From: a virus | Length of the DNA stretch: 64,000 bases | Strand: one strand, 5' to 3' | IMG/VR virus record: IMGVR_UViG_3300045988_174813 | In this document: piece after piece, positions 237-12,724 of the stretch | How the letters are laid out: every line of letters begins with the position of its first letter | Numbering within the stretch: position 1 is the stretch's first letter | Translations under genes and position numbers: made by a program | The notes under the pieces: model-generated | What the model saw: the letters and a program-made list of their open reading frames with translations, nothing else | Told to the model about the DNA's origin: nothing | Databases searched by the model: none

Positions 237-261
237 AAAAGGGGAAGGATATGTGTCCCGC

Positions 262-306
262 GCGAGAAAAAAAATAAAAGTAAAACCTCGGAGTGATCCG
301 AGGTTT
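262..306 (-). terminator. rho-independent terminator (second of two behind CDS 469-954)
   Basis: 10-bp stem AAACCTCGGA/TCCGAGGTTT (283-292/297-306) with GTGA loop; on the minus strand followed by a T-rich run (262-282). Confidence 0.6.
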
Positions 307-423
307 AAATTTCTCCCATAAAAGGGTGGGGTTTTTCGGTTTTTCTGGCTTTTACAGGCGTTGTCAAATTTTATGTTATGTCAAATTTTTTCTAGACAAA
401 TAAAAAAATTCCAAAATAAAAAT

Positions 424-444
424 AGCAGAGTAAAATACTCTGCT
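424..444 (-). terminator. hairpin terminator directly after stop of CDS 469-954, possibly bidirectional
   Basis: AGCAGAGTA-AAA-TACTCTGCT flanked by an A-run on one side and a T-run on the other. Confidence 0.6.
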
Positions 445-468
445 ATTTTCTATATATAAAGTTGCAAC

Positions 469-954
469 TTACTCTTCAACAATAGGAAGTTGGTTCCATT
501 TTTCCAAAAATTCGTGTTCAGGAATCTCTTTAGTAAGTAAGCCCTTGAGTTCATTATAAGTTACATTGCGCGGGCCGTTCTTAGTCTGTACTGTACGGAC
601 TTCTGGCTTTAGAAGAATATCTTCTGTGGTAAGCGGAGGGTCGTGAGGCGTTTCATAGAAATTGAGCTTCCCATCTTCCTCAATTATATACCCACAGTTT
701 ACTAGGTCTGCTGGCGCGCGCCGGGCAGCATCAACTGATAATCCATATACATTTGAAAAATCTCGTGGAGAATAATCTTTCTCATAGTTATTCTGATTAG
801 ATGCAAGGTATAAGTATAGTTTGAATCCAGAGGGTGTAAGTAACCTCGCGGCAGTAGCTAATGCTTGACAGTCAATAGCAAGGTATTGCTTTTTTTCTGA
901 GAGCGGATTAGAACGGTGGATAATGATAGTCTTTTGATTTTGATAGTGAGCCAT
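469..954 (-). CDS. putative winged-helix DNA-binding protein (replication-organiser/initiator-like), 161 aa
   Basis: Intact ORF with SD (AAAGGAG) before ATG, TAA stop and two terminators downstream. The central segment FKLYLYLAS..YSPRDFSNVYGLSVDAARRAPADLVNCGYI looks like a wHTH. It sits next to iteron array 1090-1390. Function is inferred. Confidence 0.7.
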   Translation of the reverse strand: MAHYQNQKTIIIHRSNPLSEKKQYLAIDCQALATAARLLTPSGFKLYLYLASNQNNYEKDYSPRDFSNVYGLSVDAARRAPADLVNCGYIIEEDGKLNFYETPHDPPLTTEDILLKPEVRTVQTKNGPRNVTYNELKGLLTKEIPEHEFLEKWNQLPIVEE

Positions 955-1004
955 AGTGAGTACTCCTTTTTTGATAAAATAAAATGATAAACTACTGATG
1001 ATAG

Positions 1005-1060
1005 TGAGCCAGCTTTTGGCGAGCGCGCCTTAGCAAAGCGAGCCAGAAAAAGCTGGCTCA
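1005..1060. repeat. 13-bp inverted repeat in the leader of CDS 469-954
   Basis: TGAGCCAGCTTTT (1005-1017) and AAAAGCTGGCTCA (1048-1060) separated by a GC-rich 30 nt that contains a third GAGCCAG copy. Confidence 0.6.
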
Positions 1061-1089
1061 TATTTAGCTTTTTGCGCATATTTCTTTAT

Positions 1090-1390
1090 ATTACTTATGT
1101 AAATTTTACATAAGGATGTAGGAAAATTTACATAAGGATGTAGGAAAATTTACATATACTTTGCTTATTTTTCGTTTTTTTATGGTCGCTATGCGCGGCT
1201 CCTATAGCTAAATTTACATAAGGGTTAGGAAAATTTACATATACTTTGGTATACCTTATGTAAGTTTTACATAAGGTTATGGCTAATTTTACATATACCT
1301 ATAGCTAGTTTTGCGTATACCTTATGTAAAATTTGCGTATACCTATAGCTAAATTTACATATACCTTATGTAAATTTTACATATACCCTC
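1090..1390. repeat. iteron-like array, at least 15 copies of about 12 bp AWTTTACATAWRS in both orientations
   Basis: Repeated AAATTTACATAAGG / AAATTTACATATAC units. Several form palindromes such as CTTATGTAAATTTTACATAAG (1094-1116) and CCTTATGTAAGTTTTACATAAGG (1253-1276). No coding potential. Confidence 0.8.
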
Positions 1391-1405
1391 TTCTATTATA
1401 TATAT

Positions 1406-1434
1406 ATTATATCATAATTTTTAGAAAATTTCAA
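1406..1434 (-). promoter_or_regulatory. extended -10 promoter (TTGAAA-17-TGaTATAAT) reading into the iteron array
   Basis: Minus strand: TTGAAA (1429-1434), 17-nt spacer ending TGA, TATAAT (1406-1411). Confidence 0.55.
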
Positions 1435-1490
1435 ATTCTTCTCAGCTTTCGGGGATTACTCGTGCGCTCGCTCGATAGTATGCTACTTCT

Positions 1491-1519
1491 ATTATATCAT
1501 AAAATCTCCAAAAAATCAA
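1491..1519 (-). promoter_or_regulatory. extended -10 promoter (TTGATT-17-TGaTATAAT) reading into the iteron array
   Basis: Minus strand: TTGATT (1514-1519), 17-nt spacer ending TGA, TATAAT (1491-1496); shares the TTTTATGATATAAT core with promoters at 47012, 57878 and 60317. Confidence 0.55.
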
Positions 1520-1530
1520 ATTTTCTGGCG

Positions 1531-1589
1531 CAGCTCCCCAGCTCTCAAAATTTGCCTATACTCCCCGCCCAGCTTTCCAGCTTCCAGCT
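1531..1589. repeat. CAGCT-rich short repeat patch (5 copies), related to 10439-10475
   Basis: CAGCT at 1531, 1539, 1570, 1578 and 1585; CCAGCTTCCAGCTTTC resembles CCAGCTTCAGCTTTCAGCTC at 10.45 kb. Confidence 0.6.
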
Positions 1590-1833
1590 TTCTTGCGCCC
1601 AAAATTTGACAGGCCTATCCAATGTTCTCCCTATGTGGTGCGCGCATCATAAAATTTGACACGCAACAAAATTTGCGTTGGTGGTTTACGATAATAATGT
1701 TATGTAAACTTTAGTTGTGTGATGAATTAGTGATTTAGTGTGTTAGTAGTTTACTATGCTAAAGAAAATTTGACAAAAATGAAAATCTAACCTAAGATAG
1801 GTTAGATTTTGGGGTAAAAGAAAAGAGGGAAAA

Positions 1834-2016
1834 TTAGATTTCCCCCTCAATAGAATAATTTTCGTATTTATAATGTAAATCAATCTGGTATTCTTTTTCA
1901 CACTGCGGGCAATAATAGATACAACATTCTGTATGATAATCATCACCATATAAATCATCATACGTATCATCAAGAGCAAGAACCGCACCACAATTCGGGC
2001 ATCTAATCTCTTCCAT
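1834..2016 (-). CDS. small zinc-ribbon protein, 60 aa
   Basis: CPNC...CPQC pairs; last gene of a three-gene unit; start abuts the stop of the upstream gene (TAAATG). Confidence 0.65.
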   Translation of the reverse strand: MEEIRCPNCGAVLALDDTYDDLYGDDYHTECCIYYCPQCEKEYQIDLHYKYENYSIEGEI

Positions 2017-2178
2017 TTATTCTTCATCCTCCAAACAAGAATCATTATTTTCACCAGTAGGAAAATAGAAACTTCCTTTCCAGAGAGGACAATTATTAAT
2101 ACATTCCCCTTTAAGGCAATCATTTACGTTGCATCTCTCTATAAAGAAAATAATTTCCTCATTACTTAGATTTTTCAT
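2017..2178 (-). CDS. hypothetical Cys-rich protein, 53 aa (below the track cutoff)
   Basis: Hand translation MKNLSNEEIIFFIERCNVNDCLKGECINNCPLWKG...; exactly fills the gap between neighbours 2016 and 2179. Confidence 0.5.
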   Translation of the reverse strand: MKNLSNEEIIFFIERCNVNDCLKGECINNCPLWKGSFYFPTGENNDSCLEDEE

Positions 2179-2298
2179 TTACTCTTCCTCCTCATACTCA
2201 CACGGTGGAATATCTCCCGCGCACTTTGCTTCAAACTTACAAGTTGGATAACTTTCGTCCTCTTCGCACCAGCAATATGGACAATCCTTGCAACTCAT
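2179..2298 (-). CDS. hypothetical Cys-rich acidic peptide, 39 aa
   Basis: AGGAGG lies 7 nt before the internal ATG (MSCKDCPYCWCEED...). The track ORF 2179-2367 starts inside the promoter. Confidence 0.5.
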   Translation of the reverse strand: MSCKDCPYCWCEEDESYPTCKFEAKCAGDIPPCEYEEEE

Positions 2299-2438
2299 AC
2301 ACTTACCTCCTTTAGATGATACAATTATATCGCGCCCGCGCCATAAAGTCAAGAAAAACATTTCCATAACCTAACCTATCTTAGGTTAGAAATGCACCAA
2401 AAACTTTCCCTCGCTAAAGTATTAGCAAGGGAAAATTT

Positions 2439-3296
2439 TCAAATATCGGCGCGTCCTACGATGCGGAACGGGAAAGCAATAATTCCGTAGGAAAATTTTC
2501 CTTTCGTGCGCTTGTGGATAAGGGAAAAAATTTCGGTTTCTATCTCGGCATCATTCAATGCCGTGTGCGCTTCTTCAAAATCAGTTTCCCCAGTGATAAA
2601 CCGGAAAGACGTTTCCGCGCTTGTCTTGTAGTATTTCCCACTTTCGGTAATCCAACCGTTAGCTTTGCACGCTTCGCGGTAATCGTCGCTATCAAGAATA
2701 TGCTCACAAGCCAAACCCCAGAGGTCAAACAGAGGATACGACCGACCACGGAAACGGAACACTTCCGGCTCATATTCTTTCTTGGAGGTATAGCGCGTCT
2801 TGCTTGCAATGTTGTCGCAGATGCGGTTCTGGAGGGCTTCCCAGTTGTGGAAGTCTGCGCTATACAGTTTGGAAATATAAAGCTCGGTAAACGGGATTGC
2901 TTTCTTGAAGTCAAAGTTGGCGTTATAAGCTCCGACGCCTACCACGTCGGCGAGGTCTGCTTCAAGTTTTGCGGACGCTTCGCGCCACGTTGCAAGCTCA
3001 ATCGTTCCCGCTTCCAGAGCTTCAAGGTAAATCGGACGCTTAGACGCATAGTAAGCAGTATTGAAAATCGCAGGAACGGAGAAAATCTCGGTAATGAGAT
3101 AGTTACGGCGGCGATAAACGTTACCCTTGGCGTCGCAAATCGTCCAGCCCAAATCATAAATAAGCGGCTTTGCGATAGCTACGGATTTTTTCGCTTCCGC
3201 GGACAGCTCCGACGCATAGGGAAGCGTTGCGGTTTCGCAATCGAGGACGCAATAGTATTTGCGGCGGCGGTCAAGTTTCTTCTCGGCAATAGACAT
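2439..3296 (-). CDS. DEDDh 3'-5' exonuclease (DnaQ-like), 285 aa
   Basis: Exo I VLDCET, Exo II YNANFDF, Exo III HTALNDAEIE. SD AAGGAG before the ATG at 3296; the track start at 3380 is a TTG inside the -35 box. Confidence 0.8.
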   Translation of the reverse strand: MSIAEKKLDRRRKYYCVLDCETATLPYASELSAEAKKSVAIAKPLIYDLGWTICDAKGNVYRRRNYLITEIFSVPAIFNTAYYASKRPIYLEALEAGTIELATWREASAKLEADLADVVGVGAYNANFDFKKAIPFTELYISKLYSADFHNWEALQNRICDNIASKTRYTSKKEYEPEVFRFRGRSYPLFDLWGLACEHILDSDDYREACKANGWITESGKYYKTSAETSFRFITGETDFEEAHTALNDAEIETEIFSLIHKRTKGKFSYGIIAFPFRIVGRADI

Positions 3297-3441
3297 AATA
3301 TATACTCCTTTTCTGTCGGGGCGTAACTTCTTTTCCCTCCTGACATTATATATATTACCACACCCTATACAGGAAGTCAAGAAAAATGTGTCCGGCTTCT
3401 AACCTATCTTAGGTTAGAAAAATTCCAAAAAAAGCAGGGAA

Positions 3442-3813
3442 TTACTCCCCTGCTTTTTCTTCCTCTGCCTTTTCCGCCTTGGCTTTTTCCTTTTCGGCTT
3501 TCTTCCGTTCCCGCTCGGCTTCTTTGCGCTTCCGTTCGGCTTCCTTGGCTTCGGCTTTCTCCGCCTTGTCTGCGAGCTTGGCGCGATACTCGTTAGCGAG
3601 CGCGTAACCGTCCGTGCCGTCCTCTTCGTCGGCTTTCTTCGGGATAATCACCGACAGCTTCACCCACCTATCCTCCCCAGCTTCGACAGTCGGGAACATA
3701 AGCGTTCCGGAAGCGGTCTGCATGACCTCTTCGCCGTCCTCCGTGAGAACTTCCACCAGACGCGCAAGCATGCGCGCACGCAGAGCATCATTCACATTTA
3801 CTTTCTTTTCCAT
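3442..3813 (-). CDS. hypothetical protein with K/E-rich C-terminal tail, 123 aa
   Basis: Intact ORF, AGGAGG SD, own promoter and palindrome; tail is KAEKAEAKEAERKRKEAERERKKAEKEKAKAEKAEEEK. Confidence 0.7.
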   Translation of the reverse strand: MEKKVNVNDALRARMLARLVEVLTEDGEEVMQTASGTLMFPTVEAGEDRWVKLSVIIPKKADEEDGTDGYALANEYRAKLADKAEKAEAKEAERKRKEAERERKKAEKEKAKAEKAEEEKAGE

Positions 3814-3928
3814 TTGGGATACCTCCTTTATCTTTGTGAGTATATGATACTATATATTGAGGGAAAAGTCAAGAAAAACTTTCGGTAGTTCTAACCTATG
3901 TTAGGTTAGATATAGATGGCTCGCGCCA

Positions 3929-4147
3929 TCAATGAATAGTGAGTTCTACATCGAGTTTTTCGACAAAATCAGAGTTCTCAAAAGAAGCGAAACTACCATC
4001 CGCAATATTTACTGTATTGCACAAAATATTTTTTGACATGCAAAATTTCGTCCGCATATAGAGTTCGCCTTCCCAAGAAAAAACTTCTCCAACTTTGACG
4101 AGTTCAAATACCATATTGCTCTTTCTTCTCGTATCATTGACCTGCAT
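3929..4147 (-). CDS. paralog family 1 member, 72 aa
   Basis: MQVNDTRR..GEVFSWEGELYMR..LCNTVNIADG..VEKLDVELTIH; close paralog of 5125-5343; own promoter, SD and palindrome. Confidence 0.75.
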   Translation of the reverse strand: MQVNDTRRKSNMVFELVKVGEVFSWEGELYMRTKFCMSKNILCNTVNIADGSFASFENSDFVEKLDVELTIH

Positions 4148-4176
4148 TATACGTTCCTCCTTTATTTTGTAATCTT

Positions 4177-4205
4177 ATTATATCAAATCTCTTTAGTTGT
4201 GTCAA
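4177..4205 (-). promoter_or_regulatory. representative early promoter (TTGACA-17-TATAAT) 6 nt downstream of palindrome 4212-4232
   Basis: Minus strand: TTGACA 4200-4205, TATAAT 4177-4182, AGGAGG about 4157-4162, ATG 4147. The same layout precedes nearly every early gene. Confidence 0.75.
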
Positions 4206-4243
4206 TTGTAGTCTAACCTATATTAGGTTAGAATAGTTGGGTG

Positions 4244-4462
4244 TCAGAATGACACCCGTGCGGGAATGGGAATAACTTCCGTATCGACATTGTAAGAGTG
4301 AAAAACGCCGTCGGAAAGAGAAACTGCATTGAGGTAGCAATCTTCTTTTTCGTCGAAGACAACTTCGGTTTTCATAAGCAGACGCTTATCCGCATTGTTT
4401 GCAAGAAGAAAGCATTCACCTTTAGACAATTCCCCAAAAGAATTACTAGTTTCAATAATCAT
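4244..4462 (-). CDS. paralog family 1 member (divergent), 72 aa
   Basis: ..GECFLLAN..LLMKT..NAVSLSDG.. matches the family pattern; own promoter, SD and palindrome. Confidence 0.7.
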   Translation of the reverse strand: MIIETSNSFGELSKGECFLLANNADKRLLMKTEVVFDEKEDCYLNAVSLSDGVFHSYNVDTEVIPIPARVSF

Positions 4463-4569
4463 ATTATTTCCTCCTTTTCTTTATGGTCGTATTATACTAT
4501 ATTATACGCGCATTGTCAACTAATCTCTAACCTATATTAGGTTAGAAGCCTCCAAAAAATTGTCTACCC

Positions 4570-5007
4570 TCAACCGAGGGCAGACAAAATTTCCATAATC
4601 TGCGACGGGTCAAAACTGTATTCTCCCCAGTTTTCGCGGTTCTTCTCTTCATCATCGAAAAGAATATCTTCCGCGCCGAGCTTGAAAGTTTCTTTCGGTG
4701 TGCCATACTCTACGACGTGGATAGCGTCCCACTTGACAGAGTGGAGATGCTTGTCAAGCCATTTCTTTTTGGCTTCGCGCACGGCTTCAAGATAGGCTTT
4801 CGAGCTTGTCTTGCTTCCCCACGAGATAACGCCGATAGTGTAGCCTGCGCGGTGGAGCTTGTTGAGCTTGCGCGCGAGCGTGCGCATATCACCGAGCGGT
4901 CGCGCCTGGGCATAGGGTCTTGGATTTTCTGCGCGAAGCATAGAAAGCCAATTTTCCACGGCGTAAAGGTCTGAAATTGTGCCGTCCATATCGAACCAAA
5001 TCGTCAT
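4570..5007 (-). CDS. HAD-superfamily phosphatase (5'(3')-deoxyribonucleotidase-like), 145 aa
   Basis: N-terminal FDMDGT (DxDxT) motif; size and later D-rich motif (FDDEE) fit small HAD nucleotidases. Confidence 0.7.
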   Translation of the reverse strand: MTIWFDMDGTISDLYAVENWLSMLRAENPRPYAQARPLGDMRTLARKLNKLHRAGYTIGVISWGSKTSSKAYLEAVREAKKKWLDKHLHSVKWDAIHVVEYGTPKETFKLGAEDILFDDEEKNRENWGEYSFDPSQIMEILSALG

Positions 5008-5124
5008 TTCGTTGTGTCCTCCTTTATCTTTGTGAGTATATGATACTACATAATGAGTAAAAAGTCAAGAAAAAATTGTGTGGTTTCTAACCTATATTAG
5101 GTTAGATTATGATGGCTTATGCCA

Positions 5125-5343
5125 TCAATGAATAATGAGTTCTGTATCGAGTTTTTCAACAAGCTCGGAATTTGCAAAGTAAACCAACATGCCATCCGCA
5201 ATATCGACTGTATTACACAAAGTATCACCAACTTTGCAAGGTCGTATCCTCATCCAAAGTTTACCCTCCCAACAAAAAACTTCTCCTTTTTTGATTGCTT
5301 CAAAAAAAACGTGTTCTTTCATTCTCGTATCTTTGACTTGCAT
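5125..5343 (-). CDS. paralog family 1 member, 72 aa
   Basis: MQVKDTRM..GEVFCWEGKLWMR..LCNTVDIADG..VEKLDTELIIH. Confidence 0.75.
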   Translation of the reverse strand: MQVKDTRMKEHVFFEAIKKGEVFCWEGKLWMRIRPCKVGDTLCNTVDIADGMLVYFANSELVEKLDTELIIH

Positions 5344-5466
5344 TATAGTTTCCTCCTTTATTTTGTAATTGTATTATACTCCACTATGCACTCCTTGTCA
5401 ACTATCCTCTAACCTATTTTAGGTTAGAAACCCTCCAAAAAAGAGAGGGGAGAAAACTCCCCTCAC

Positions 5467-5832
5467 TTACTCCGCGTCCACGTCCGCGGGATGGGCAACG
5501 TAACACTTCTGCGCGCCCTTGCCCTTGACCTTGACATCCTCCACGTCAAGCTCACCGAGCGCGACAAGCTGACGGAGCAGGGCGGACGCCTTAGGTGTGG
5601 ACAGCTCAAGCTCCACAGCGACCTCGGAGGCGAGACGCTTCTTGTTGTCGTCCATCAGATTGCGGATGGCGTCGAGGATGGGCGCGTTTTCGGCGAGCTT
5701 CTTGGAGTTGACGCGAGCCGAAGCCTTTTCGCGCTCTTTGGTAAGCTGGTCAAGCATAGCCTGCGCCTTTTCGTTCATTTCGTCGGAGAGGTTCGCGCTA
5801 ATCACGTTCGCAAAAAATTCCTTATTGGTCAT
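5467..5832 (-). CDS. hypothetical protein with C-terminal winged-helix-like domain, 121 aa
   Basis: GC-rich ORF. ..LASEVAVELELSTPKASALLRQLVALGELD.. resembles MarR-type wHTH. Separate terminator at 5445-5464 plus T-run. Confidence 0.65.
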   Translation of the reverse strand: MTNKEFFANVISANLSDEMNEKAQAMLDQLTKEREKASARVNSKKLAENAPILDAIRNLMDDNKKRLASEVAVELELSTPKASALLRQLVALGELDVEDVKVKGKGAQKCYVAHPADVDAE

Positions 5833-5991
5833 GATGTATTCCTTTCTGGTTTTTCGGTCTTGTCCTTGACCTTGAATTTTAGGGGATTTTGTATCCCCCT
5901 TACGAGTATTATATTACCACATACTCTAAAAAATTGCAAGCAAAATTTTTTGGGTTCTAACCTATTTTAGGTTAGAATGGAAGTGGAGGAA

Positions 5992-6267
5992 TTATTCCTC
6001 CACTTCATCATTTGCGAGCCGAACCTCATAGGGCCCATACACGTCATCATCTTCTGCTTTTTCGTGTGCCCAATCTTCAAATTGCAGGCGCGCCTCTTCG
6101 CGGTCTGCGTCGGTAAACTCAAAGATTTCATCAATGTAATAGTTTTCTTCAAGAAAAACATTGAAGTTATCTTTTGTTTTCCAATCGTCCACAAGACCAT
6201 TGAAGTATTCTTCGTGCGCGCGGTCGGACATCATGTCATTGTCGAAAGAACTATACCATACTGTCAT
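5992..6267 (-). CDS. highly acidic small protein (paralog family 2), 91 aa
   Basis: AGGAGG before the ATG at 6267 (MTVWYSSF...); about one third D/E; shares the EEYF..W..ENY..EIF pattern with 7900-8151. Confidence 0.7.
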   Translation of the reverse strand: MTVWYSSFDNDMMSDRAHEEYFNGLVDDWKTKDNFNVFLEENYYIDEIFEFTDADREEARLQFEDWAHEKAEDDDVYGPYEVRLANDEVEE

Positions 6268-6366
6268 TTGGGTATCCTCCTTTGTCTTTGTGAGTATACT
6301 ATACCACACTTTGCGCGGAGTGTCAATTCTCTTCTAACCTATATTAGGTTAGATGCCCAATTGGAA

Positions 6367-6765
6367 TTATTTTCCAATCGGGCAGACAGTAAGTCCGCGT
6401 TCTTTGAGATACTGAATTGCAATAGTGGCATCGTAATAATCAAAAATTTCTTTGAGACTTGCTTCATATGGGATATAATTGTATTCCACTACAAGGGTAT
6501 GCGGTTTTTTATCAAGAGAACTCCACATAAAAGGTTTACTTTCCACTTCCAGCCCATAAAATTCTTTTTTGAAAAGTTTCTTCCATGTCCATGTGAAGAC
6601 GCCTGCGTTTGCTGGAAGAGAATCAATAGCTTCTTTGAGATTAGTGAATGTCCAGGTTTTTGTGCTGATGTCGGCTTCATCTGCAAGAACAAAGCCATGT
6701 GTGCGGGACTGCATTTCTTCTCCATCAAAGAGAACGCGCACCTTGAGACGATAAGACTTAATCAT
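6367..6765 (-). CDS. hypothetical protein, 132 aa
   Basis: SD AAAGGGGA before the ATG at 6765 (MIKSYRLKV...). The longer track ORF starts inside the promoter. Confidence 0.65.
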   Translation of the reverse strand: MIKSYRLKVRVLFDGEEMQSRTHGFVLADEADISTKTWTFTNLKEAIDSLPANAGVFTWTWKKLFKKEFYGLEVESKPFMWSSLDKKPHTLVVEYNYIPYEASLKEIFDYYDATIAIQYLKERGLTVCPIGK

Positions 6766-6871
6766 TGGTTTATCCCCTTTCTTTTGATGATACAAATATA
6801 CCATATTTGCACTATAAAGTCAATCCCTATCTAACCTAATATAGGTTAGAAAAATAAGGGGCATAAGTCCC

Positions 6872-7189
6872 TTACTTCATAATTGCATAATTTTTTGCAT
6901 ACCAGAATTTTTCTGGAATTTCCATAACCGTGATAAGCACGATACCCTCTTCAACCTTGCCATAGATAAATACATAATTTTTATACACTTTGAAAAACTG
7001 ATTGTTCCCGCGGAATTTTTCAGCCGTATATCTCAAGTAGCTTTCAAACGGCGTTCCCTCGTAGCGTTCAAACTCTACTCCGCGCGCGTAGGCTTGGCGC
7101 GCGATTTTAGATATAGAAATATTGTAGGTGAGATTTTTGCGCTCGCGCCATCTTTTGAAAGCGTGGTCTGAAATGATAATGGTTTCCAT
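6872..7189 (-). CDS. hypothetical protein, 105 aa (weak resemblance to DUF4258-type small toxins)
   Basis: The N-terminal ISDHAFKRWRER motif is reminiscent of the H-A-x-x-R-x-x-E-R signature. Resemblance only, not verified. Confidence 0.55.
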   Translation of the reverse strand: METIIISDHAFKRWRERKNLTYNISISKIARQAYARGVEFERYEGTPFESYLRYTAEKFRGNNQFFKVYKNYVFIYGKVEEGIVLITVMEIPEKFWYAKNYAIMK

Positions 7190-7298
7190 AATTTTGGGAT
7201 ACCTCCTTTTCTTTATGGTCTTATTATACCATATGGAAAGAAAAAGTCAACACCCCTCTAACCTATGTTAGGTTAGAAATGCGCGCGGTCTCCGCGCG

Positions 7299-7514
7299 TT
7301 AGTGGATGACAAGGTCAGCATCGACGAACCGAACGACTTCATCTCCCATGAAGCAAGTAATTGTACCATCCTCAAGACAAATTGCGTTATATATATGACC
7401 ATTAGAGACGGTCTCTCTGAACCTCATAAAAATGCTATTGTTATATTCAAAAATTCCGCCTACGTCTACGTCGTCAAAAAAATGATTCTCATTTTCTTTT
7501 CTAATAATATTCAT
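7299..7514 (-). CDS. paralog family 1 member, 71 aa
   Basis: AGGAGG before the ATG at 7514 (MNIIRKEN..GGIFEYNNSIFMR..NAICLEDG..DADLVIH). Confidence 0.7.
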   Translation of the reverse strand: MNIIRKENENHFFDDVDVGGIFEYNNSIFMRFRETVSNGHIYNAICLEDGTITCFMGDEVVRFVDADLVIH

Positions 7515-7621
7515 AACTTGTTCCTCCTTTATTTTGTAATTATAATATACCATAAAAAATTCCAACTGTCAATACCACTCTAACCTAATATAGGTTAGAA
7601 TTTATGCTGGCTCGCGCCAGC

Positions 7622-7798
7622 TTAGTAGATAGAATATTCAGCTTCCAGGCGCCAGCTCTCACTCTCGCGCAGTTCCATTTCTACGAGCGTTGGCATCTGA
7701 CCAATGAGTGCCATGAGTTGCTTTCCGATGTCTATCGTAGTGATGTAGGGCAAACGTTGCGCGGGCATATCTTTGAACCATGCGGTAAGTGTATACAT
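7622..7798 (-). CDS. hypothetical protein, 58 aa (below the track cutoff)
   Basis: GGGAGG SD 7 nt before ATG; MYTLTAWFKDMPAQRLPYITTIDIGKQLMAL...; replaces plus-strand track ORF 7604-7873, which has no signals. Confidence 0.55.
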   Translation of the reverse strand: MYTLTAWFKDMPAQRLPYITTIDIGKQLMALIGQMPTLVEMELRESESWRLEAEYSIY

Positions 7799-7899
7799 TT
7801 GGAATACCTCCCTTTACTTTGTACTGTAAGTATACTATATCTATACGAAAAAGTCAACCCACTTCTAACCTAAGATAGGTTAGAAAAAAAAGAGGAAGA

Positions 7900-8151
7900 T
7901 TACTCTTCCTCTTCCATGGGTTCATAGTCCATGTCCTCAATAGCCTCTTCCCGCACAGCGTCATAAAACTCTTCGTAAACGTTCTGCCGTTCCATCTCGC
8001 ACATAGAGAAAATCTCGTGAGCGTTATAGTTTTCATCAATCCAGCGCTCAAAGAAATACTCATCCAGTTGCGCCTCCATCTCTTCCTCTACCAGCTCGTC
8101 AAAACGCTCCTCGTCAATAACCTCACCAGTGATAGCATGCTTGTACATCAT
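7900..8151 (-). CDS. highly acidic small protein (paralog family 2), 83 aa
   Basis: 31 of 83 residues are D/E by hand count; DEYFFERWIDENYNAHEIF matches 5992-6267. Confidence 0.7.
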   Translation of the reverse strand: MMYKHAITGEVIDEERFDELVEEEMEAQLDEYFFERWIDENYNAHEIFSMCEMERQNVYEEFYDAVREEAIEDMDYEPMEEEE

Positions 8152-8315
8152 AGTAAAATACCTCTTTTCAAATATTTGAGACGTTCGGTTTGTTTCCTCT
8201 ATCTCTTTACATTATGAATTATACTATATATCGTCCCGAATGTCAACTCATTTCTAACCTATAATAGGTTAGAATATATCCTGCGCAGAAACTAAAAGTG
8301 CCCCTATTGGGGCAC

Positions 8316-8519
8316 TTATTTGAGCACCTTACACTCACGAATCTCAAAAGGCTTGACCCCATTATTATCCGACAATGATTTCCACCACCGTTCAGGGGTG
8401 AGCCATTTCTGCTGGTTCTCTGTGGCAAAACAATCATATAGCGTGTTGATTGCGTCTTTCTTGTTGTTGGCAACTGCGAAAAACGGATGTCCACTTGTTG
8501 TTCTAAAAACTGCTACCAT
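8316..8519 (-). CDS. hypothetical protein, 67 aa
   Basis: SD AAGGAGAAG before the ATG at 8519 (MVAVFRTTSGHPFF...). Confidence 0.6.
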   Translation of the reverse strand: MVAVFRTTSGHPFFAVANNKKDAINTLYDCFATENQQKWLTPERWWKSLSDNNGVKPFEIRECKVLK

Positions 8520-8641
8520 ATCTTTCTTCTCCTTTTGGTTATTTCTTTTATCTTTGTGATTATAATATACCATACTTTTAGAAAGAAGTCAACTAACTTC
8601 TAACCTATATTAGGTTAGAAAAGGATTGATGGCTCGCGCCA

Positions 8642-8863
8642 TCAAATCCGAACCGTGATGTCAGCCCTCACCGGCATGACAATGGTACCGGAGTCATACA
8701 CCGTCATCTCACAGGTGTCAAAATCAAATGCATTGCGTCTCCAGCCGTCACTGGTGTAGGTGTCTGCCAGTTTGAGGCACGGCTTGCCGCAACAAAGAAA
8801 AGTGTCGCCAACTTTCAGTTCACTAAATTCGACGGTTTTACGGTACTGATAAAAGATGTTCAT
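8642..8863 (-). CDS. paralog family 1 member (divergent), 73 aa
   Basis: MNIFYQYRK..VGDTFLCCGKPCLKL..; same length class and G-[DE]-x-F core; stop sits in a GATGGC-N4-GCCATC hairpin as in 3929 and 5125. Confidence 0.6.
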   Translation of the reverse strand: MNIFYQYRKTVEFSELKVGDTFLCCGKPCLKLADTYTSDGWRRNAFDFDTCEMTVYDSGTIVMPVRADITVRI

Positions 8864-8971
8864 TGGTATATCCCCTTTCAAGTTTGTATACACATTATAA
8901 CGCATATGCGCCCGTTTGTCAACCGGTTTCTAACCTATTTTAGGTTAGAAGTCCCCCTTGCGGGGGAACGC

Positions 8972-9157
8972 TTACCGCATATCCTGTCCCATATAGATAA
9001 ATTCCACACGCTTACCGACAAGATTGTGCTCCTGTCTGAACTTTTTCTTAGCGGTAGTCATAGAATACCCATAATAGACAGTATGCGCGCCGTCATAGCA
9101 AAAAGTAAGAGACGCGTTGCGCGGATTGGAACTGATGAACACGGTAGACATAGACAT
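8972..9157 (-). CDS. hypothetical protein, 61 aa
   Basis: AGGAGG SD, own promoter and palindrome. Confidence 0.6.
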   Translation of the reverse strand: MSMSTVFISSNPRNASLTFCYDGAHTVYYGYSMTTAKKKFRQEHNLVGKRVEFIYMGQDMR

Positions 9158-9302
9158 GGTAGAAACCTCCTTGTTTTTATACTTGAATTATACTATATGA
9201 TTATGGGATAGTCAAGAAAAAAATTCCCATATCTAACCTATATTAGGTTAGAAAAAATTGCAAAAAAAATTCCATACCATTATGGGATACAAAAAATTGC
9301 AA

Positions 9303-9358
9303 GAAAAAATTCCATTGCGCGGGCACCATAAAATTACTACAAAGTATGGTGTCCGCGC
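9303..9358 (-). terminator. hairpin terminator after CDS 9373-9540
   Basis: 14-bp stem GCGCGGGCACCATA / TATGGTGTCCGCGC (one mismatch) followed on the minus strand by a T-run. Confidence 0.55.
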
Positions 9359-9372
9359 CGTGTATGTATGTC

Positions 9373-9540
9373 TCAATATCTTACTTCTGTATAAAGATGT
9401 GCTACGCCAGAAATCAGAGAATACACACCTACTAACTCTTGAATTATAAACCGCGCCATAGAAATATTGCCCATATCAATCGCGCCAACACTACCAAAAA
9501 TAAGTGCAATCCCAACAATGATTTTTATCCATTTACTCAT
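9373..9540 (-). CDS. small membrane protein, 55 aa, two predicted TM segments
   Basis: SD AAGGAGAG before the ATG at 9540; MSKWIKIIVGIALIFGSVGAI...LVGVYSLISGVAHLY. Confidence 0.6.
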   Translation of the reverse strand: MSKWIKIIVGIALIFGSVGAIDMGNISMARFIIQELVGVYSLISGVAHLYTEVRY

Positions 9541-9644
9541 TAGAATACTCTCCTTTCGTTTTCTACTTATAGTATATATTATGGAAACCAAATTGTCAAT
9601 ACAGAATTATGTGAACCGCGCGAAACTCTAACCTATATTAGGTT

Positions 9645-9693
9645 AGAAAATATAGTGAAAAGAAACTTCACTACGGTAAAGTAGTGAAGTTTC
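9645..9693 (-). terminator. canonical rho-independent terminator after CDS 9700-9864, immediately followed by palindrome 9627-9647
   Basis: 13-bp stem GAAACTTCACTAC/GTAGTGAAGTTTC (9662-9693), then TTTTCACTATATTTTC on the minus strand. Confidence 0.75.
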
Positions 9694-9699
9694 CTCTAC

Positions 9700-9864
9700 T
9701 TAGTACGTATCGTACCCCATCATTTCCGCCGTGTAATCATCATCAATGGAAATAAATTCCGGGTCGTCAAAATAGAAATAAGCGATTTGGTCGGCGCTGT
9801 CGATGCTGTTGGCGACCACATAGAAATATTCTCCGGTCTGATTGTCATAATACAAATAATTCAT
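9700..9864 (-). CDS. hypothetical acidic protein, 54 aa (below the track cutoff)
   Basis: Hand translation MNYLYYDNQTGEYFYVVANSIDSADQIAYFYFDDPEF...; SD AAGGGGAAA; bracketed by a promoter and a terminator. Confidence 0.55.
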   Translation of the reverse strand: MNYLYYDNQTGEYFYVVANSIDSADQIAYFYFDDPEFISIDDDYTAEMMGYDTY

Positions 9865-10036
9865 AGTAGTTTCCCCTTGTATTTAGTTTGTGGACAAGGA
9901 ATAGGGGTCGGATGGCGGTATCACATAACGCTCTCCATCGGGTCTTTTTCCCTGTCCACATTATGAATTATACCACATTATATGGAAAAGTCAAATGGTT
10001 TCTAACCTATTTTAGGTTAGAATTATGGGATAGGAA

Positions 10037-10066
10037 AAACTTTTCCACACTAAAGTGGAAAAGTTT
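10037..10066 (-). terminator. hairpin terminator after CDS 10077-10247, followed by palindrome 10001-10021
   Basis: 12-bp stem AAACTTTTCCAC/GTGGAAAAGTTT, T-rich 3' side on the minus strand. Confidence 0.5.
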
Positions 10067-10076
10067 CCCCAAAAAA

Positions 10077-10247
10077 TTACTGGTCAATGGTGTATTCGAT
10101 TTTCCCCGTCTTGTCATTTTTCACGACAACCACGCCCGCGCCCGGAAAAGTGGCATAATTTTCGGCAAGATTTTTTGCGGTTTTGAGGGTTGCCACGCCA
10201 GAATGAAATACGGTGCGAGATTTGAAATTGATTTCGATAGTGTACAT
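10077..10247 (-). CDS. hypothetical protein, 56 aa (below the track cutoff)
   Basis: GGAGGT SD 7 nt before ATG; MYTIEINFKSRTVFHSGVATLKTAKNLAENYATFPGAGVVVVKND... Confidence 0.55.
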   Translation of the reverse strand: MYTIEINFKSRTVFHSGVATLKTAKNLAENYATFPGAGVVVVKNDKTGKIEYTIDQ

Positions 10248-10438
10248 TGTATGTACCTCCTTGATTTATTGTACCTATATGATACTATATATATACTATA
10301 TTGTCAATACCCTATCGGGATATTTCTAACCTATGTTAGGTTAGAAAAAAATTTGAGCGGGACAAAATTTCCAGCCTGTAGCTTTCATACTTTAGTGTAT
10401 GAAAGTACGGGCTCTCGCGCGGGTGCGCGAAAAAATTT

Positions 10439-10475
10439 CCAGCTCAGCTCCAGCTTCAGCTTTCAGCTCAGCTCC
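10439..10475. repeat. CAGCT short repeat patch (6 copies)
   Basis: CCAGCTCAGCTCCAGCTTCAGCTTTCAGCTCAGCTCC; related to 1531-1589. Confidence 0.7.
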
Positions 10476-10568
10476 CCTGTGAGTGGTAGGTGATGGGTGG
10501 GTTATGGGTGCATAATATATATACTATGGGCGCGCTTTGCACCTTGACGCCAAATTTCTACTTTATCC

Positions 10569-10614
10569 TGCTAAATCGTTATACTTTCGCGTGCTAAATC
10601 GCTACACTTTCACG
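10569..10614. repeat. tandem 23-bp direct repeat x2
   Basis: TGCTAAATCGTTATACTTTCGCG / TGCTAAATCGCTACACTTTCACG (20 of 23 identical). Confidence 0.8.
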
Positions 10615-10662
10615 ATGTAAAGTGCGACAGTTTATTACACTAAAGTATTATTCCATACTACA

Positions 10663-10691
10663 ATTATAACACATAATGCATAGATATGCAA
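10663..10691 (-). promoter_or_regulatory. early-type promoter (TTGCAT-17-TATAAT) 17 nt downstream of palindrome 10709-10729
   Basis: Minus strand: TTGCAT 10686-10691, TATAAT 10663-10668. Confidence 0.55.
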
Positions 10692-10912
10692 GAAAAATTT
10701 CCCCCGTTTCTAACCTATATTAGGTTAGAGAATATTTATGCATTTTGGGCGCGAATAATGCATAAACATTCAAAAAATCATAGGTTAGAAACGATTTTTT
10801 GCATAAATATTCATGCATAATATTCATGCATATTCATTCATTATGTATGGATATTTATGCAAAGTTGATTATAGGATGTATACTTTCATGCTTTAGTGTA
10901 CTAAAGTGACAG

Positions 10913-10944
10913 GATAAAAAAAGAGAGACGGATTACTCCGTCTC
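10913..10944 (-). terminator. rho-independent terminator overlapping the stop of CDS 10933-11172
   Basis: GAGACGGA-TTAC-TCCGTCTC (10925-10944) followed on the minus strand by TCTTTTTTTATCC. Confidence 0.8.
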
Positions 10945-11172
10945 CCTCTTGTTTCTCTTGCCAAACCAGTATTCGGCGTCAATTTCCGGCATATCCATAC
11001 CAGCGTACCAGTCATGCCGGTAGAAAATGTCGTATTCATCGACAACGTCGACAACGAACCAGTACGCATTTTCGGCCTCATTAATACTCACAAAACCGCG
11101 CTCTTTAATGACGCCGGTAGTGTTGGAACGGATACGAACGACAGCATTGTACTTTTTGATTTTGCTTTTCAT
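10933..11172 (-). CDS. hypothetical protein, 79 aa
   Basis: Intact ORF with a strong terminator; SD GGAG upstream. Confidence 0.65.
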   Translation of the reverse strand: MKSKIKKYNAVVRIRSNTTGVIKERGFVSINEAENAYWFVVDVVDEYDIFYRHDWYAGMDMPEIDAEYWFGKRNKRETE

Positions 11173-11220
11173 TTTTCAAACTCCTATCTAAAATTTGTAT
11201 TTTGGGATATGGCGGATTTT

Positions 11221-11493
11221 TCAATCCGCCATATCTTCCAACAACCAGCTAAAATGCTTAACCAAAATAGGCAAGTATTCAACAGCGTCATCCGCCAACA
11301 TATAGGCGGCGATCATATCGCTATTGTAGGCGATCTGCCGTTCGATCATGCCATAGCGCTTGCGGTTGTCTTTCGTGATAGGCTTGCTATTCAACATCTC
11401 AAGCGTTTTCTCAAGTGCCCTATTTTCTTTTCGCAAGGTTTCAAGGGTGTTTTCGATCTGATCGTTCATGCGTTCCATAGTAGCAATTTTCAT
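11221..11493 (-). CDS. hypothetical coiled-coil protein, 90 aa
   Basis: Intact ORF; heptad-like N-terminus (NDQIENTLETLRKENRALEKTLEML). Confidence 0.6.
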   Translation of the reverse strand: MKIATMERMNDQIENTLETLRKENRALEKTLEMLNSKPITKDNRKRYGMIERQIAYNSDMIAAYMLADDAVEYLPILVKHFSWLLEDMAD

Positions 11494-11555
11494 TTTACAT
11501 AAACCCCTATTCTTTATTTGTTGGGCGCGGTTTGCCCGCGCCCTTGTAGCTTAGT

Positions 11556-11813
11556 TTACGGCCTGTCGTATTTCGGGGATACACTGACAACCAATTCCCC
11601 GTCACCAATGCCAAAATCAAAGATACTGTAATCACGATCAAGCGCGTTGATATCGCGCACGGTAACGCCGTAATCGTCAACTAATTTACCGTCAACGACA
11701 TAGCCCGTAAGCGCAACGCGAAACGGCCTATAGTGGTAAACTTTTAAGCGCATAGGTTTACCGAAATTGTAACGCATGATAAAATCATTAAGCTCCATTT
11801 TTACACACTCCAT
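11556..11813 (-). CDS. hypothetical protein, 85 aa (alternative start at 11798)
   Basis: Intact ORF. GGAG lies 9 nt before the second ATG (MELNDF...), so 11798 may be the true start. Confidence 0.6.
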   Translation of the reverse strand: MECVKMELNDFIMRYNFGKPMRLKVYHYRPFRVALTGYVVDGKLVDDYGVTVRDINALDRDYSIFDFGIGDGELVVSVSPKYDRP

Positions 11814-11859
11814 TCTTATTTATGCGGCGCGGGAATGTATCCCGCGCCGCTTTTGCTTG

Positions 11860-12669: not shown

Positions 12670-12724
12670 GCACTTTTTTCGATTTTTAAAAACTTTTTTT
12701 CGCCGTGCTTATGGCGTTCTAAGC

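Follow-up and report, generated by a model that had tools for sequence, protein, structure and literature searches.

What does a palindrome do when it recurs between nearly all the genes of one short region of a gut phage genome? In the window (the whole 64,000-nucleotide stretch of DNA analysed here), an exact-match search for TCTAACCTANNNTAGGTTAGA returned 21 matches, from 1786 to 10729, and a search allowing up to 3 mismatches returned a 22nd copy at 2370–2390 with a single mismatch at its outermost base. The 21-bp motif, TCTAACCTA-N3-TAGGTTAGA, has all of its copies within 1786–10729, and an exact match occurred in none of 100 dinucleotide-preserving shuffles (the chance expectation is zero). 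The original prediction of 22 perfect copies was thus correct in number, but one copy is imperfect; the frequent arm extension that it described was borne out, with arms reaching TTCTAACCTA in 17 of 22 copies and TAGGTTAGAA in 12 of 22. No full palindrome was found in the other 53 kb of the window with up to 3 mismatches, as had been claimed, and the two half-sites already described are present; a third, however, had been missed. The restriction holds beyond the window, in that two IMG/VR contigs (84 kb and 123 kb) carry every copy inside one 9–14 kb stretch. The isolated half-sites are as follows.

10781–10788: left half-site CTAACCTA, ~50 nt upstream of the first palindrome; kept in relatives L062 and L063
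12656–12663: right half-site TAGGTTAG, just past the -35 that serves operon 12438 to 10933; relatives do not keep it, and it is probably a coincidence
49584–49591: third half-site, absent from the earlier description

The palindromes bound an array of cassettes, predicted to be the immediate-early region, in which N cassettes are accompanied by N+1 palindromes, including a terminal promoterless copy, whose lack of a promoter fits poorly with a binding site. The ORFs of the array use the standard genetic code, and transcription starts and timing were inferred from sequence only. On the minus strand the elements follow one another in the order first proposed, namely stop codon, gene-specific hairpin, palindrome, -35 TTGAC(A/T), 16–17 nt, TATAAT-like -10, Shine-Dalgarno sequence and ATG, with a near-consensus sigma-A promoter after each palindrome copy but the last. 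(Note that promoters so close to consensus show no obvious need for an activator, which runs counter to a binding-site reading.) That last copy lacks a downstream gene, as had been noted, and has no credible promoter either. The description of palindromes bracketing every early unit was slightly overstated, the operon that adjoins the array upstream having no full palindrome, and that of promoter-gene units holds for the promoter of the first cassette but not for a gene, since no ORF lies there. The features are listed below (gap, distance from palindrome to -35, in nt).

1786–10729, minus strand: array of 21 promoter-gene cassettes, each palindrome-bounded
12438 to 10933: operon adjoining the array upstream, promoter near 12640–12668
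10709–10729: palindrome 1, spacer ATA (minus strand), gap 17 to TTGCAT-17-TATAAT; cassette 10346–10708, without ORF
10325–10345: palindrome 2, spacer ACA, gap 17; gene 10077–10247, 56 aa
10001–10021: palindrome 3, spacer AAA, gap 6; gene 9700–9864, 54 aa
9627–9647: palindrome 4, spacer ATA, gap 27; gene 9373–9540, 55 aa, hydrophobic
9232–9252: palindrome 5, spacer ATA, gap 16; gene 8972–9157, 61 aa
8929–8949: palindrome 6, spacer AAA, gap 6; gene 8642–8863, 73 aa
8599–8619: palindrome 7, spacer ATA, gap 6; gene 8316–8519, 67 aa
8253–8273: palindrome 8, spacer TTA, gap 6; gene 7900–8151, 83 aa
7864–7884: palindrome 9, spacer TCT, gap 6; gene 7622–7798, 58 aa
7579–7599: palindrome 10, spacer TAT, gap 6; gene 7299–7514, 71 aa
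7257–7277: palindrome 11, spacer ACA, gap 6; gene 6872–7189, 105 aa, core cassette
6830–6850: palindrome 12, spacer TAT, gap 6; gene 6367–6765, 132 aa
6333–6353: palindrome 13, spacer ATA, gap 6; gene 5992–6267, 91 aa
5956–5976: palindrome 14, spacer AAA, gap 16, weak promoter TTGCAA-17-TAATAT with 78-nt leader; gene 5467–5832, minus strand, winged-helix protein, 121 aa, core cassette of all arrays
5408–5428: palindrome 15, spacer AAA, gap 6; gene 5125–5343, 72 aa, member of a paralogous family
5086–5106: palindrome 16, spacer ATA, gap 17; gene 4570–5007, 145 aa, NT5C/HAD-like nucleotidase, core cassette
4526–4546: palindrome 17, spacer ATA, gap 6; gene 4244–4462, 72 aa
4212–4232: palindrome 18, spacer ATA, gap 6; gene 3929–4147, 72 aa
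3890–3910: palindrome 19, spacer ACA, gap 17; gene 3442–3813, 123 aa, core cassette
3398–3418: palindrome 20, spacer AGA, gap 17; gene 2439–3296, 285 aa, core cassette, homologue in Enterococcus phage H1 annotated as exodeoxyribonuclease
2370–2390: palindrome 21, sole imperfect copy (outermost promoter-side base A to G), gap 17; three small Cys-rich genes, 2179–2298, 2017–2178 and 1834–2016
1786–1806: palindrome 22, array-terminal; arms grow to 13 bp (1782–1810), then a T-run; flank TTTCATTTTTGTCAAATTTTC conserved even where the lineage has another palindrome

Within the window, the gap between palindrome and -35 is 6 nt in 12 cases, 16/17 nt in eight and 27 nt in one. The same steps recur in 237 unique promoter contexts from ~50 human-gut contigs, with gaps of 6 (n=120), 16/17 (n=90) and 26/27 (n=14) and none between; the Rayleigh R at a 10.5-bp period, calculated per cassette type (38 types), is 0.989. 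With 71 different hexamers filling the 6-nt gaps (among the 237 contexts), the sequence of the gap is free. Because no fixed distance separates it from the stop codon upstream (range 11 to 587 nt) whereas the -35 follows at set steps, the palindrome is, judged by its spacing, part of its downstream promoter, and whole-turn spacing upstream of ~20 early promoters points to a putative shared control site bound by protein.

The arms hardly vary. Of the 317 unique sites compared (the window lineage, relatives included), 289 match perfectly; 27 have one mismatch, which in 26 of them affects the outermost base. The spacer never departs from 3 nt in length, and 16 triplets are seen in it. Since nearly all mismatches are outermost and so many sites are perfect, the base sequence, rather than shape alone, would appear to be what is read. 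On the sense strand the spacer reads A.A in 221 sites but T.T in 46, a polarity that would not be expected if a symmetric dimer bound duplex DNA and that weighs against a binding site.

The palindrome has been replaced lineage by lineage. Lineages with TTAGACGT-N3-ACGTCTAA have their own ladder of gaps, 9, 18–19, 28–29, 39–40 and 50–51 nt (449 contexts), with 435 of 488 sites perfect (sites with up to 3 mismatches), and a third palindrome, TTCGTACGT-N3-ACGTACGAA, stands 6–7 nt from the -35. One sister lineage has ~19 copies of CGAACATATGTTCG within its array, a sequence identical to the LexA SOS-box consensus of B. subtilis (PMC8270828). These boxes lie 33–72 nt upstream of the -35 in their lineage, a spread that speaks against a binding-site reading. 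The L068 and L073 lineages are a further awkward case for such a site, their palindrome standing 40–57 nt from the -35 with looser phasing and a centre that varies in length by 1 nt.

On balance, the palindrome is probably a site for a dimeric, sequence-specific protein placed on one helix face relative to RNA polymerase, its copies serving also as recombination joints. The original proposal of an operator thereby gains support that is indirect but strong (the integral-turn lock to the promoter, the constant arms and the free centre). The dimer would bind the palindrome as double-stranded DNA and sit on one face relative to the host sigma-A RNA polymerase, with the centre of the site ~52, 62–63 or 73 bp before the predicted start of transcription. 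Because the site is phased on one face at each promoter, a single factor could touch polymerase at ~20 immediate-early promoters and switch them all together. As to the direction of the effect, we tend to favour negative control, in the form of silencing or an early shut-off, since the promoters are already of consensus strength and since the array of a sister lineage has host LexA repressor boxes; simple occlusion would not explain repression, because a site at -52 or beyond misses the core promoter. The protein might instead work as a class I activator does.

The putative reader could come from the host, or it could be a conserved phage protein whose gene lies outside the array. Three regulators had been named as candidates (5467–5832, 469–954 and 57441–57707), and the first two are disfavoured. 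The winged-helix gene at 5467–5832 encodes the only DNA-binding-like protein of the array, but its recognition helix (helix 3, residues 79–91) and wing are invariant, better conserved than the rest of it, between lineages that have entirely different palindromes. The Rep-like product of 469–954 has no homologue in relatives that share the palindrome.

The second half of the favoured reading, that copies are also joints, agrees with the earlier suggestion of a recombination boundary. Arrays of relatives contain 40 cassette types in 76 different adjacencies, homology between arrays stops within 10 nt of the palindrome, and gene content changes exactly at palindrome boundaries. The arrays vary by insertion or deletion of whole cassettes; cassette cluster 23 occupies two different slots, an order swap is seen (0-12 vs 12-0) and so is a tandem duplication (8 8). 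At L001 site 8470–8490, the upstream flank matches that of window copy 10729 (95% identity) and the downstream flank that of copy 8949 (95%). Since all the promoters share one and the same site, it would offer a patch of homology through which promoter-gene-terminator cassettes could be deleted, inserted, duplicated and moved, a regulatory site thus being a cassette joint too.

Such exchange raises the possibility that the palindrome is primarily a portable joint like the PeSL elements of T4-type phages, a precedent (PMC2839356), with no dedicated regulator, gene conversion keeping the copies alike and promoter distance reflecting structural tolerance. The rearrangements, the homology limits and the N+1 arithmetic with its promoterless end copy all suit this account, and the spacer triplet differs even where cassette adjacency is identical, as expected under continued recombination between copies. 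We nevertheless consider it unlikely. It predicts neither the 10.5-bp ladder with free gap sequence, which recurs in three lineages with different palindromes, nor the perfect dyad, nor a LexA box taking the same role elsewhere; a homology patch could be any 21-bp repeat. Moreover, TTAGACGT-type sites keep their 16 arm bases perfect in phages too diverged for frequent recombination (array proteins only 30–59% identical in amino acids).

It is less plausible still that the palindrome acts as structural DNA, a small cruciform or fixed bend under negative supercoiling that tunes the promoter or is bound by a structure-specific host protein, the bases themselves not being read. Bacillus phage promoters do respond to rotational phasing of upstream structural elements, such as the curved DNA of SP82 promoters; the perfect dyad, 3-nt centre and A/T-rich core would favour extrusion, the spacer polarity hints that one strand matters, and the 1-nt centre variation in the L068 lineage suits a hairpin better than a rigid dimer. 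However, a role for shape alone predicts compensatory arm changes, of which the 317 sites of the window lineage show none, and in the TTAGACGT lineages 186 pair-breaking changes far exceed 31 compensatory ones (mostly one recurrent symmetric variant). A stem of 9–10 bp is also short for stable extrusion, and the LexA box of the sister lineage speaks for reading by protein.

A role as the 3'-terminal RNA hairpin of the preceding transcript, whether as terminator, stabiliser or processing site, is very improbable. The palindrome does come after every gene, the last one included, its spacer is polar relative to the transcribed strand, and the terminal copy scores as terminator-like (13-bp arms plus T-run). 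Yet the U-tract is missing in 21 of 22 copies and a stronger, gene-specific hairpin comes right behind the stop codon of nearly every gene, in accord with the earlier remark that the element is not simply a terminator. The processing or stability hairpin offered as an alternative is likewise disfavoured: the RNA fold reaches only -10.8 kcal/mol, the invariant sequence without covariation is atypical of structural RNA, no Rfam family matches the palindrome, and phasing with the next promoter would not be expected of an RNA element, whereas here the stop-to-palindrome distance is the free one.

Least credible is an integron-like site cut and rejoined by a dedicated cassette-capturing recombinase: cassettes are site-bounded and found in different slots, and the palindromes are lineage-specific as recombinase/site pairs are, but 16 central triplets conflict with the identical overlap regions required by tyrosine and serine recombinases, no integrase or recombinase family was found among the window proteins scanned (a subset of ORFs), and the promoter phasing would be left unexplained. 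Of the original interpretation, the operator and the recombination boundary are supported, and the named regulators at 5467–5832 and 469–954, the RNA hairpin and the integron are not. The likeness to integrons lies in outcome only, the window site being 21 bp, perfect and not attC-like, and each cassette bringing its own promoter. A parallel is offered by the PeSL elements of T4-type phages, in that identical copies of the window palindrome would likewise act as recombination joints.

An exact search of the window for TCTAACCTA-N3-TAGGTTAGA returned 21 copies of the palindrome, all between 1786 and 10729, and none in 100 dinucleotide-preserving shuffles. The original prediction had counted 22 perfect copies; 22 copies do lie where it had put them, but one of these (2370–2390) carries a mismatch at its outermost base. 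The arms are longer by an extra T in 17 of the 22 copies and by an extra A in 12. As had been claimed, the other 53 kb contain no full copy, even with up to three mismatches allowed, and the half-sites at 10781 and 12655 are present, together with a third at 49584–49591. The proposed minus-strand order of elements also holds: stop codon, usually a gene-specific hairpin, palindrome, TTGAC(A/T), 16–17 nt, a TATAAT-like hexamer, a Shine-Dalgarno sequence and ATG. Such a pair of hexamers at this spacing follows 21 of the 22 copies; most array promoters agree with the consensus at 10–12 of 12 positions and two (those of the copies ending at 10729 and 5976) at only 8–9. The terminal copy (1786–1806) has no gene after it, as noted earlier, and no promoter either; it has 13-bp arms and then a T-run. 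The statement that the palindrome brackets every early unit was too broad, in that a four-gene operon immediately upstream of the array is without a full copy. Exact matches to the palindrome come from 53 metagenome stretches and 2 IMG/VR contigs; the array-bearing contigs have as many as 22 copies apiece and are mostly labelled human gut. Related genomes have 10–22 palindromes each, all inside the early array. Comparison of the array with GenBank phages by megablast gave no match, Rfam gave just one spurious miRNA match in window positions 1–14000, and a literature search with the arm sequences returned only primers and unrelated constructs. Because of its consensus host-type promoters and its position, we infer that the array is probably the immediate-early region.

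Some cassettes have features of their own. The first (10346–10708, minus strand) has a promoter (TTGCAT-17-TATAAT), no ORF and internal repeats, among them GCTGAGCTGAAAGCTGAAGCTGGAGCTGAGCTGG; it is kept as the first cassette in relatives (cluster 10) and may specify a non-coding RNA or be a DNA site. An AGCTGG-rich stretch at 1569–1592, past the other end of the array, resembles these repeats. Five cassettes encode apparent paralogues of a small-protein family of 71–73 aa (3929–4147, 4244–4462, 5125–5343, 7299–7514 and 8642–8863), two of which match phrog_6570 (unknown function); tblastn detected no homologues of this family in the lineages with other palindromes. PDB sequence searches with the 285-aa and 123-aa core proteins were uninformative.

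The key new result is that the palindrome is phased with the promoter. In the window, 12 copies have a gap of 6 nt to the −35 hexamer downstream, 8 have a gap of 16 or 17 nt and one has a gap of 27 nt. Over 237 unique promoter contexts the gap is likewise 6 (120), 16/17 (90) or 26/27 nt (14), with none in between and the promoterless terminal copy as the sole exception, and when each of 38 cassette types is counted once the resultant vector length reaches its maximum, 0.989, at a period of 10.5 bp. The gap-6 class contains 71 different hexamers, indicating that the length is fixed and the sequence free. The palindrome, by contrast, follows the upstream stop codon at anything from 11 to 587 nt, without pattern. 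Together, the quantized gap and the free stop-codon distance indicate that the palindrome belongs to the downstream promoter and lies on one face of the helix. If the usual promoter geometry is assumed, the palindromes are centered near −52, −62/−63 or −73; in the longer-gap classes the interval from the site to the −35 hexamer usually contains an A-tract/T-tract, for instance AAAATTTTTC. The ladder predicts that shifting the site by 5 bp would matter and that shifting it by 10–11 bp would not.

Homologues of the winged-helix protein encoded at 5467–5832 (40–53% identity) occur on other long gut contigs, in loci of the same layout, with tandem small genes that have their own promoters adjoining a divergent block that includes a YonG_N-domain gene. 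The repeated element differs by lineage.

Repeated elements of related loci, with the gap to the −35 hexamer
L064: TTCGTACGT-N3-ACGTACGAA; gap of 6 nt in 8 of 9 copies
L070: TTAGACGT-N3-ACGTCTAA; gap of 9, 19/20 or 30 nt
L068 and L071: AGTAGTCT-N4/5-AGACTACT; gap of 40–57 nt, with a second conserved box in between
L073: TAGTAGT-N8-ACTACTA, a variant related to the L068/L071 element; gap of about 50–57 nt
L072: TAGTTAAAA...TTTTAACTA; unphased
L066: about 19 copies of CGAACATATGTTCG or near variants; gap of 33–72 nt

The TTAGACGT type is found in 81 IMG/VR stretches, and its 449 unique contexts form a ladder at 9, 18–19, 28–29, 39–40 and 50–51 nt that reaches five helical turns. Recurrence of the ladder with another palindrome argues that phasing is general to the architecture and independent of palindrome sequence. 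Moreover, the window and L070 have in common the flank TTTCATTTTTGTCAAATTTTC after the terminal palindrome despite their different palindromes, which argues for a concerted replacement of the entire palindrome set in homologous arrays. In the sister lineage L066 (ENA ERZ27317920 k141_182304, 1–9400) the boxes, of which five match CGAACATATGTTCG perfectly, are distributed over the homologous early array and lie upstream of promoters. CGAACATATGTTCG is the consensus of the LexA SOS box in B. subtilis (PMC8270828, Table 1), a match that implies putative SOS-linked control of a phage early array. The boxes of L066 are often followed by GACCGGCCG. The window itself has a single one-mismatch match to the LexA box (CGAAC-N4-GTTCG), which equals the chance expectation.

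On balance we consider it just on the probable side that the palindrome is a dyad operator: one dimeric protein would bind each copy and contact RNA polymerase from a fixed face of the helix at every early promoter, and the identical operator copies would act as recombination joints as a by-product. As for the direction of control, the consensus promoters and the LexA precedent would favor silencing or shut-off, and a ladder of several turns, together with the A/T tract that separates the site from the −35 hexamer, would resemble class I activation.

Cutting all arrays at the palindromes defined 338 segments of 40 cassette types in 76 different adjacencies. Cassette order is colinear overall, with whole cassettes gained or lost; cluster 23 turns up in either of two slots, the order of clusters 0 and 12 can be reversed, and one genome has a tandem duplication of cluster 8. 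Where two arrays share the downstream cassette and differ in the upstream one, identity is 0.66–0.76 right after the palindrome and 0.25–0.36 right before it; the result is symmetric where the upstream cassette is shared, and controls in which both are shared give about 0.8 on either side (0.81). Two sites in a relative's locus (L001) are explicit chimeric junctions between close relatives. The site at 8470–8490 joins the upstream flank of the window copy ending at 10729 (95%) to the downstream flank of the copy ending at 8949 (95%), and the site at 3775–3795 joins flanks of the copies ending at 2390 (80%) and 1806 (97%), with removal of the last cassette. These breaks in homology at the palindrome, and the many cassette types and adjacencies, bear out the suggestion that it is a recombination boundary. 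The spacer triplet tracks neither the upstream nor the downstream cassette and varies even within identical adjacencies, so the crossover point inside the palindrome cannot be placed. A pure recombination joint would account for the exchange of cassettes but leaves the phasing, the dyad and the LexA case unexplained, and we regard it as unlikely.

Variation within the sites bears on whether the palindrome acts through its sequence or its shape. Perfect copies make up 289 of the 317 unique sites; of the 27 single mismatches, 26 fall on the outermost base of the promoter side, and none of the sites has compensatory arm variants. The spacer is constantly 3 nt, yet 16 different triplets occupy it. 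Invariant arms without compensation and free triplets indicate that the arms are read as sequence and the centre is not. A structural element indifferent to sequence, which would fit a perfect dyad with a 3-nt centre, is contradicted by the lack of compensatory variation and appears decidedly improbable. The polarity of the spacer on the sense strand (A.A at 221 sites, T.T at 46) is the remaining oddity.

An RNA hairpin or terminator, also among the roles first put forward, fares worse. The palindrome is A/T-rich, with only 3 G-C pairs in its arms, and its RNA fold amounts to only −10.8 kcal/mol; copies other than the terminal one have no sense-strand T-run, unlike intrinsic terminators, in which a G/C-rich stem is followed by a U-tract. 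The separate gene-specific hairpins that follow the stop codons, just upstream of the palindrome, are stronger. In its favor, a terminator scan of the transcribed minus strand passed the terminal copy (1782–1810), and that copy alone; two further copies appeared on the opposite strand. The site is, however, attached to the next promoter rather than to the previous gene, and we judge this explanation very improbable. Least probable of all is an integron-like site-specific system, a comparison that the original prediction had drawn with attC: exchange of cassettes is common to both, but the palindrome is a perfect 21-bp dyad with a variable 3-nt centre rather than an imperfect 57–141 bp palindrome with R/L boxes and extrahelical bases, each cassette has its own promoter in place of a common one, and no integrase or recombinase family, and hence no adjacent tyrosine integrase, was detected among the scanned window proteins.

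Of the three proteins first proposed as candidate regulators (5467–5832, 469–954 and 57441–57707), the first two do not fit that role. The winged-helix protein of 5467–5832 gives an AlphaFold model of N-terminal helices and a winged helix (pLDDT 71), generic MarR/ArsR/PadR-like Foldseek matches and only sub-threshold Pfam matches. Conservation within the family is highest in helix 3 (residues 79–91, TPKASALLRQLVA) and the wing, both invariant across at least five palindrome types, which argues against this protein as the specific reader, since the recognition helix stays constant while the palindromes differ. The weakly Rep/DnaD-like protein of 469–954 is without a homologue in the relatives that carry this palindrome; its gene adjoins iteron-like 22-bp repeats (AAAATTTACATAAGG...) at 1101–1387. 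We also rejected the 192-aa gene at 11860–12438, which shows just 27–29% identity in relatives with the same palindrome, and the half-site at 12656–12663, which lies inside a promoter and is not kept in relatives. Six exact copies of TGTCAAATTTT, in both orientations, lie inside 203–1775, and the box also follows the terminal palindrome in L070. It could be an origin element or, considered alongside the invariant recognition helix, a conserved target of the winged-helix protein.

None of the protein families encoded in the arrays of the 81 TTAGACGT loci stands out by its conservation; the families have median identities of 30–59%, and winged-helix identities are 32–98%. Of the TTAGACGT sites found with up to three mismatches, 435 of 488 are perfect. 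As the sites are near-perfect while the early proteins diverge, the reader must show much stronger conservation than the early genes do. Candidates are a host protein, with the LexA lineage as a precedent, and a conserved phage protein encoded elsewhere. A genome scan for the window palindrome found single terminator-like copies only, in Metabacillus and one Clostridium MAG, which does not bear on the host of this phage.

The window derives from a large tailed phage that infects a Firmicute. Outside the array, a minus-strand block at 40–64 kb contains genes for Pol III alpha, a DnaB-like helicase, gyrase A and B, dUTPase and a split ribonucleotide reductase, and is read, like the early array, in the standard code. 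The plus-strand block at 13–40 kb is readable only with TAG translated: the late/structural genes (13000–40100) have hardly any long ORFs in table 11 and are continuous with TAG read through, for example at 27260–34321 (2352 aa, 65 in-frame TAG codons) and 35405–39769 (1447 aa). ARAGORN found no tRNA, and hence no suppressor tRNA, in the window. The barrel domain of the ribonucleotide reductase large subunit is divided over two ORFs, 47075–48523 and 49665–50474, about 1.1 kb apart, which suggests that an intron, intein or homing element may intervene. A near-perfect palindrome of 38 bp (AGTGTGATTGAATATTCAATCACACT core, 47054–47091) between the genes for ribonucleotide reductase and Pol III alpha could be an operator or a terminator. 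The divergent control region that separates the early operon from the late block (12745–12929) contains two perfect tandem repeats, (GCCCTT)x4.7 at 12745–12772 and (CAAACCTAAAATTC)x5.9, with a 14-bp unit, at 12847–12929. The AACCTA of the latter was considered as a palindrome half-site and dismissed as coincidence, as the repeat units of relatives are without this core.

A broader reading, tentative and as a whole doubtful, is that a clade of gut/rumen Firmicute phages wires its whole immediate-early set to one conserved dimeric regulator, most probably a host factor, through a phased operator at each promoter. In one lineage the regulator would be LexA, and host physiology would gate phage takeover; different lineages would have moved to different host factors through concerted replacement of all of their roughly 20 operators. 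The clade would be large and uncultivated, with many members, including the window phage, having TAG-recoded late genes. Since the operator is also the cassette joint, a gene caught between two operators would be regulated at once and exchangeable among phages with the same operator, making the system, if the reading is true, a promoter-carrying, regulator-addressed counterpart of the integron. In each of hundreds of genomes of abundant gut phages, about 20 strong promoters appear to be under one-site control, and the identity of the reader would reveal the master switch of the immediate-early program in a major uncultivated phage group, a switch that, one lineage suggests, can be a host stress regulator. 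The palindromes mark the borders of fast-exchanging small early genes, likely a host-takeover and anti-defence repertoire, and so offer a practical handle for cataloguing them.

The array has points in common with several known systems. The host-takeover module of the Bacillus phage SPO1 is likewise a terminal block of many small genes, each with a very strong host-type promoter and a terminator, and its TF1 is a dimeric DNA-binding protein that binds at early promoters. SPO1, however, has no invariant palindrome and TF1 recognizes hmU-containing DNA; no HU-like gene was seen in the phage described here. Class I activators such as CRP act from sites at −61.5, −72.5, −82.5 and −92.5. In the array, too, a predicted dimer dyad lies upstream of the −35 hexamer at integral helical turns, the only positions at which CRP is functional, and the longer-gap classes have an A/T tract where the alpha C-terminal domain would sit. 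Class I-dependent promoters, in contrast, are normally weak with a poor −35 hexamer, whereas both hexamers here are close to consensus, and the closest position here (about −52) is not one used by CRP.

The conserved inverted repeats of phiC31 and the C1 operators of P1 are dispersed operators of one phage repressor. The stoperators of cluster A mycobacteriophages are also dispersed operators of a single repressor (PMC9283540, PMC6550527). The array resembles these systems in its short, lineage-specific motif, repeated 15–30 times per phage genome and tied to transcription units, many of which one protein is thought or shown to control. Unlike the palindrome, a symmetric dyad helically phased upstream of each promoter, stoperators are asymmetric 13–14-bp sites read by a monomer, in one orientation inside transcribed DNA, where they block elongation. 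Furthermore, the motif is far more conserved here than the neighboring phage proteins, and no cognate phage repressor was found among the candidates and array-encoded families compared. LexA SOS boxes are known in Bacillus prophages such as SPbeta (PMC8270828). The near-consensus boxes of L066 lie in a homologous array, and the phage group has further SPbeta-like features, namely YonG_N-domain genes by the arrays of related loci and a Pol III alpha gene in the window; SPbeta, however, has about 10 degenerate boxes at scattered genes rather than one per promoter, and the window palindrome has a different sequence and 9-3-9 geometry, with no LexA box in the window.

The closest parallel to the exchange of cassettes is with the promoter-early stem-loop (PeSL) cassettes of T4-type phages (Arbiol et al. 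2010, PMC2839356; Comeau et al. 2014, PMC4122927), the described behavior of which it matches. In both, repeated intergenic modules with a strong σ70-type early promoter in each unit and a stem-loop are gathered where small unknown genes lie, and close relatives differ by insertions, deletions and replacements that have their ends inside the modules. PeSL cassettes are further characterized by circular by-products (mini-circles). PeSL stem-loops, in contrast, are G/C-rich terminators of variable sequence in five positions relative to the promoter; the repeat here appears to be no such terminator or attenuator and is one invariant A/T-rich 21-bp dyad, with no U-tract, always integral turns upstream of the −35 hexamer, the terminator being a separate gene-specific hairpin. 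The phage is also unrelated to T4, with a large terminase (encoded in the 13–40 kb block) closest to those of Geobacillus virus E3 (42% identity) and large Enterococcus phages. A cultured relative, Enterococcus phage H1 (L165, OP534061.1, 91.5–102.7 kb), has a homologous early array that ends in the same hydrolase and exonuclease genes. The H1 array has no invariant palindrome; its −35 hexamers lie in the loop of the terminator hairpin of the previous gene (e.g. GGGG-TTGACA-ACCCC and then a T-run), an arrangement that is clearly of the classical PeSL-like type, and arrays of this family could be studied experimentally in H1.

Operator arrays are already known, as are promoter/stem-loop cassettes that shuffle. 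In the searchable literature we found no invariant dyad that is separate from the terminator and lies at integral turns upstream of about 20 consensus promoters, no wholesale replacement of such a dyad between lineages, including by a host SOS box, and no such site that is far more conserved than the surrounding phage proteins. The array joins two ideas that are usually kept apart, those of operator arrays and of recombination-prone regulatory cassettes.
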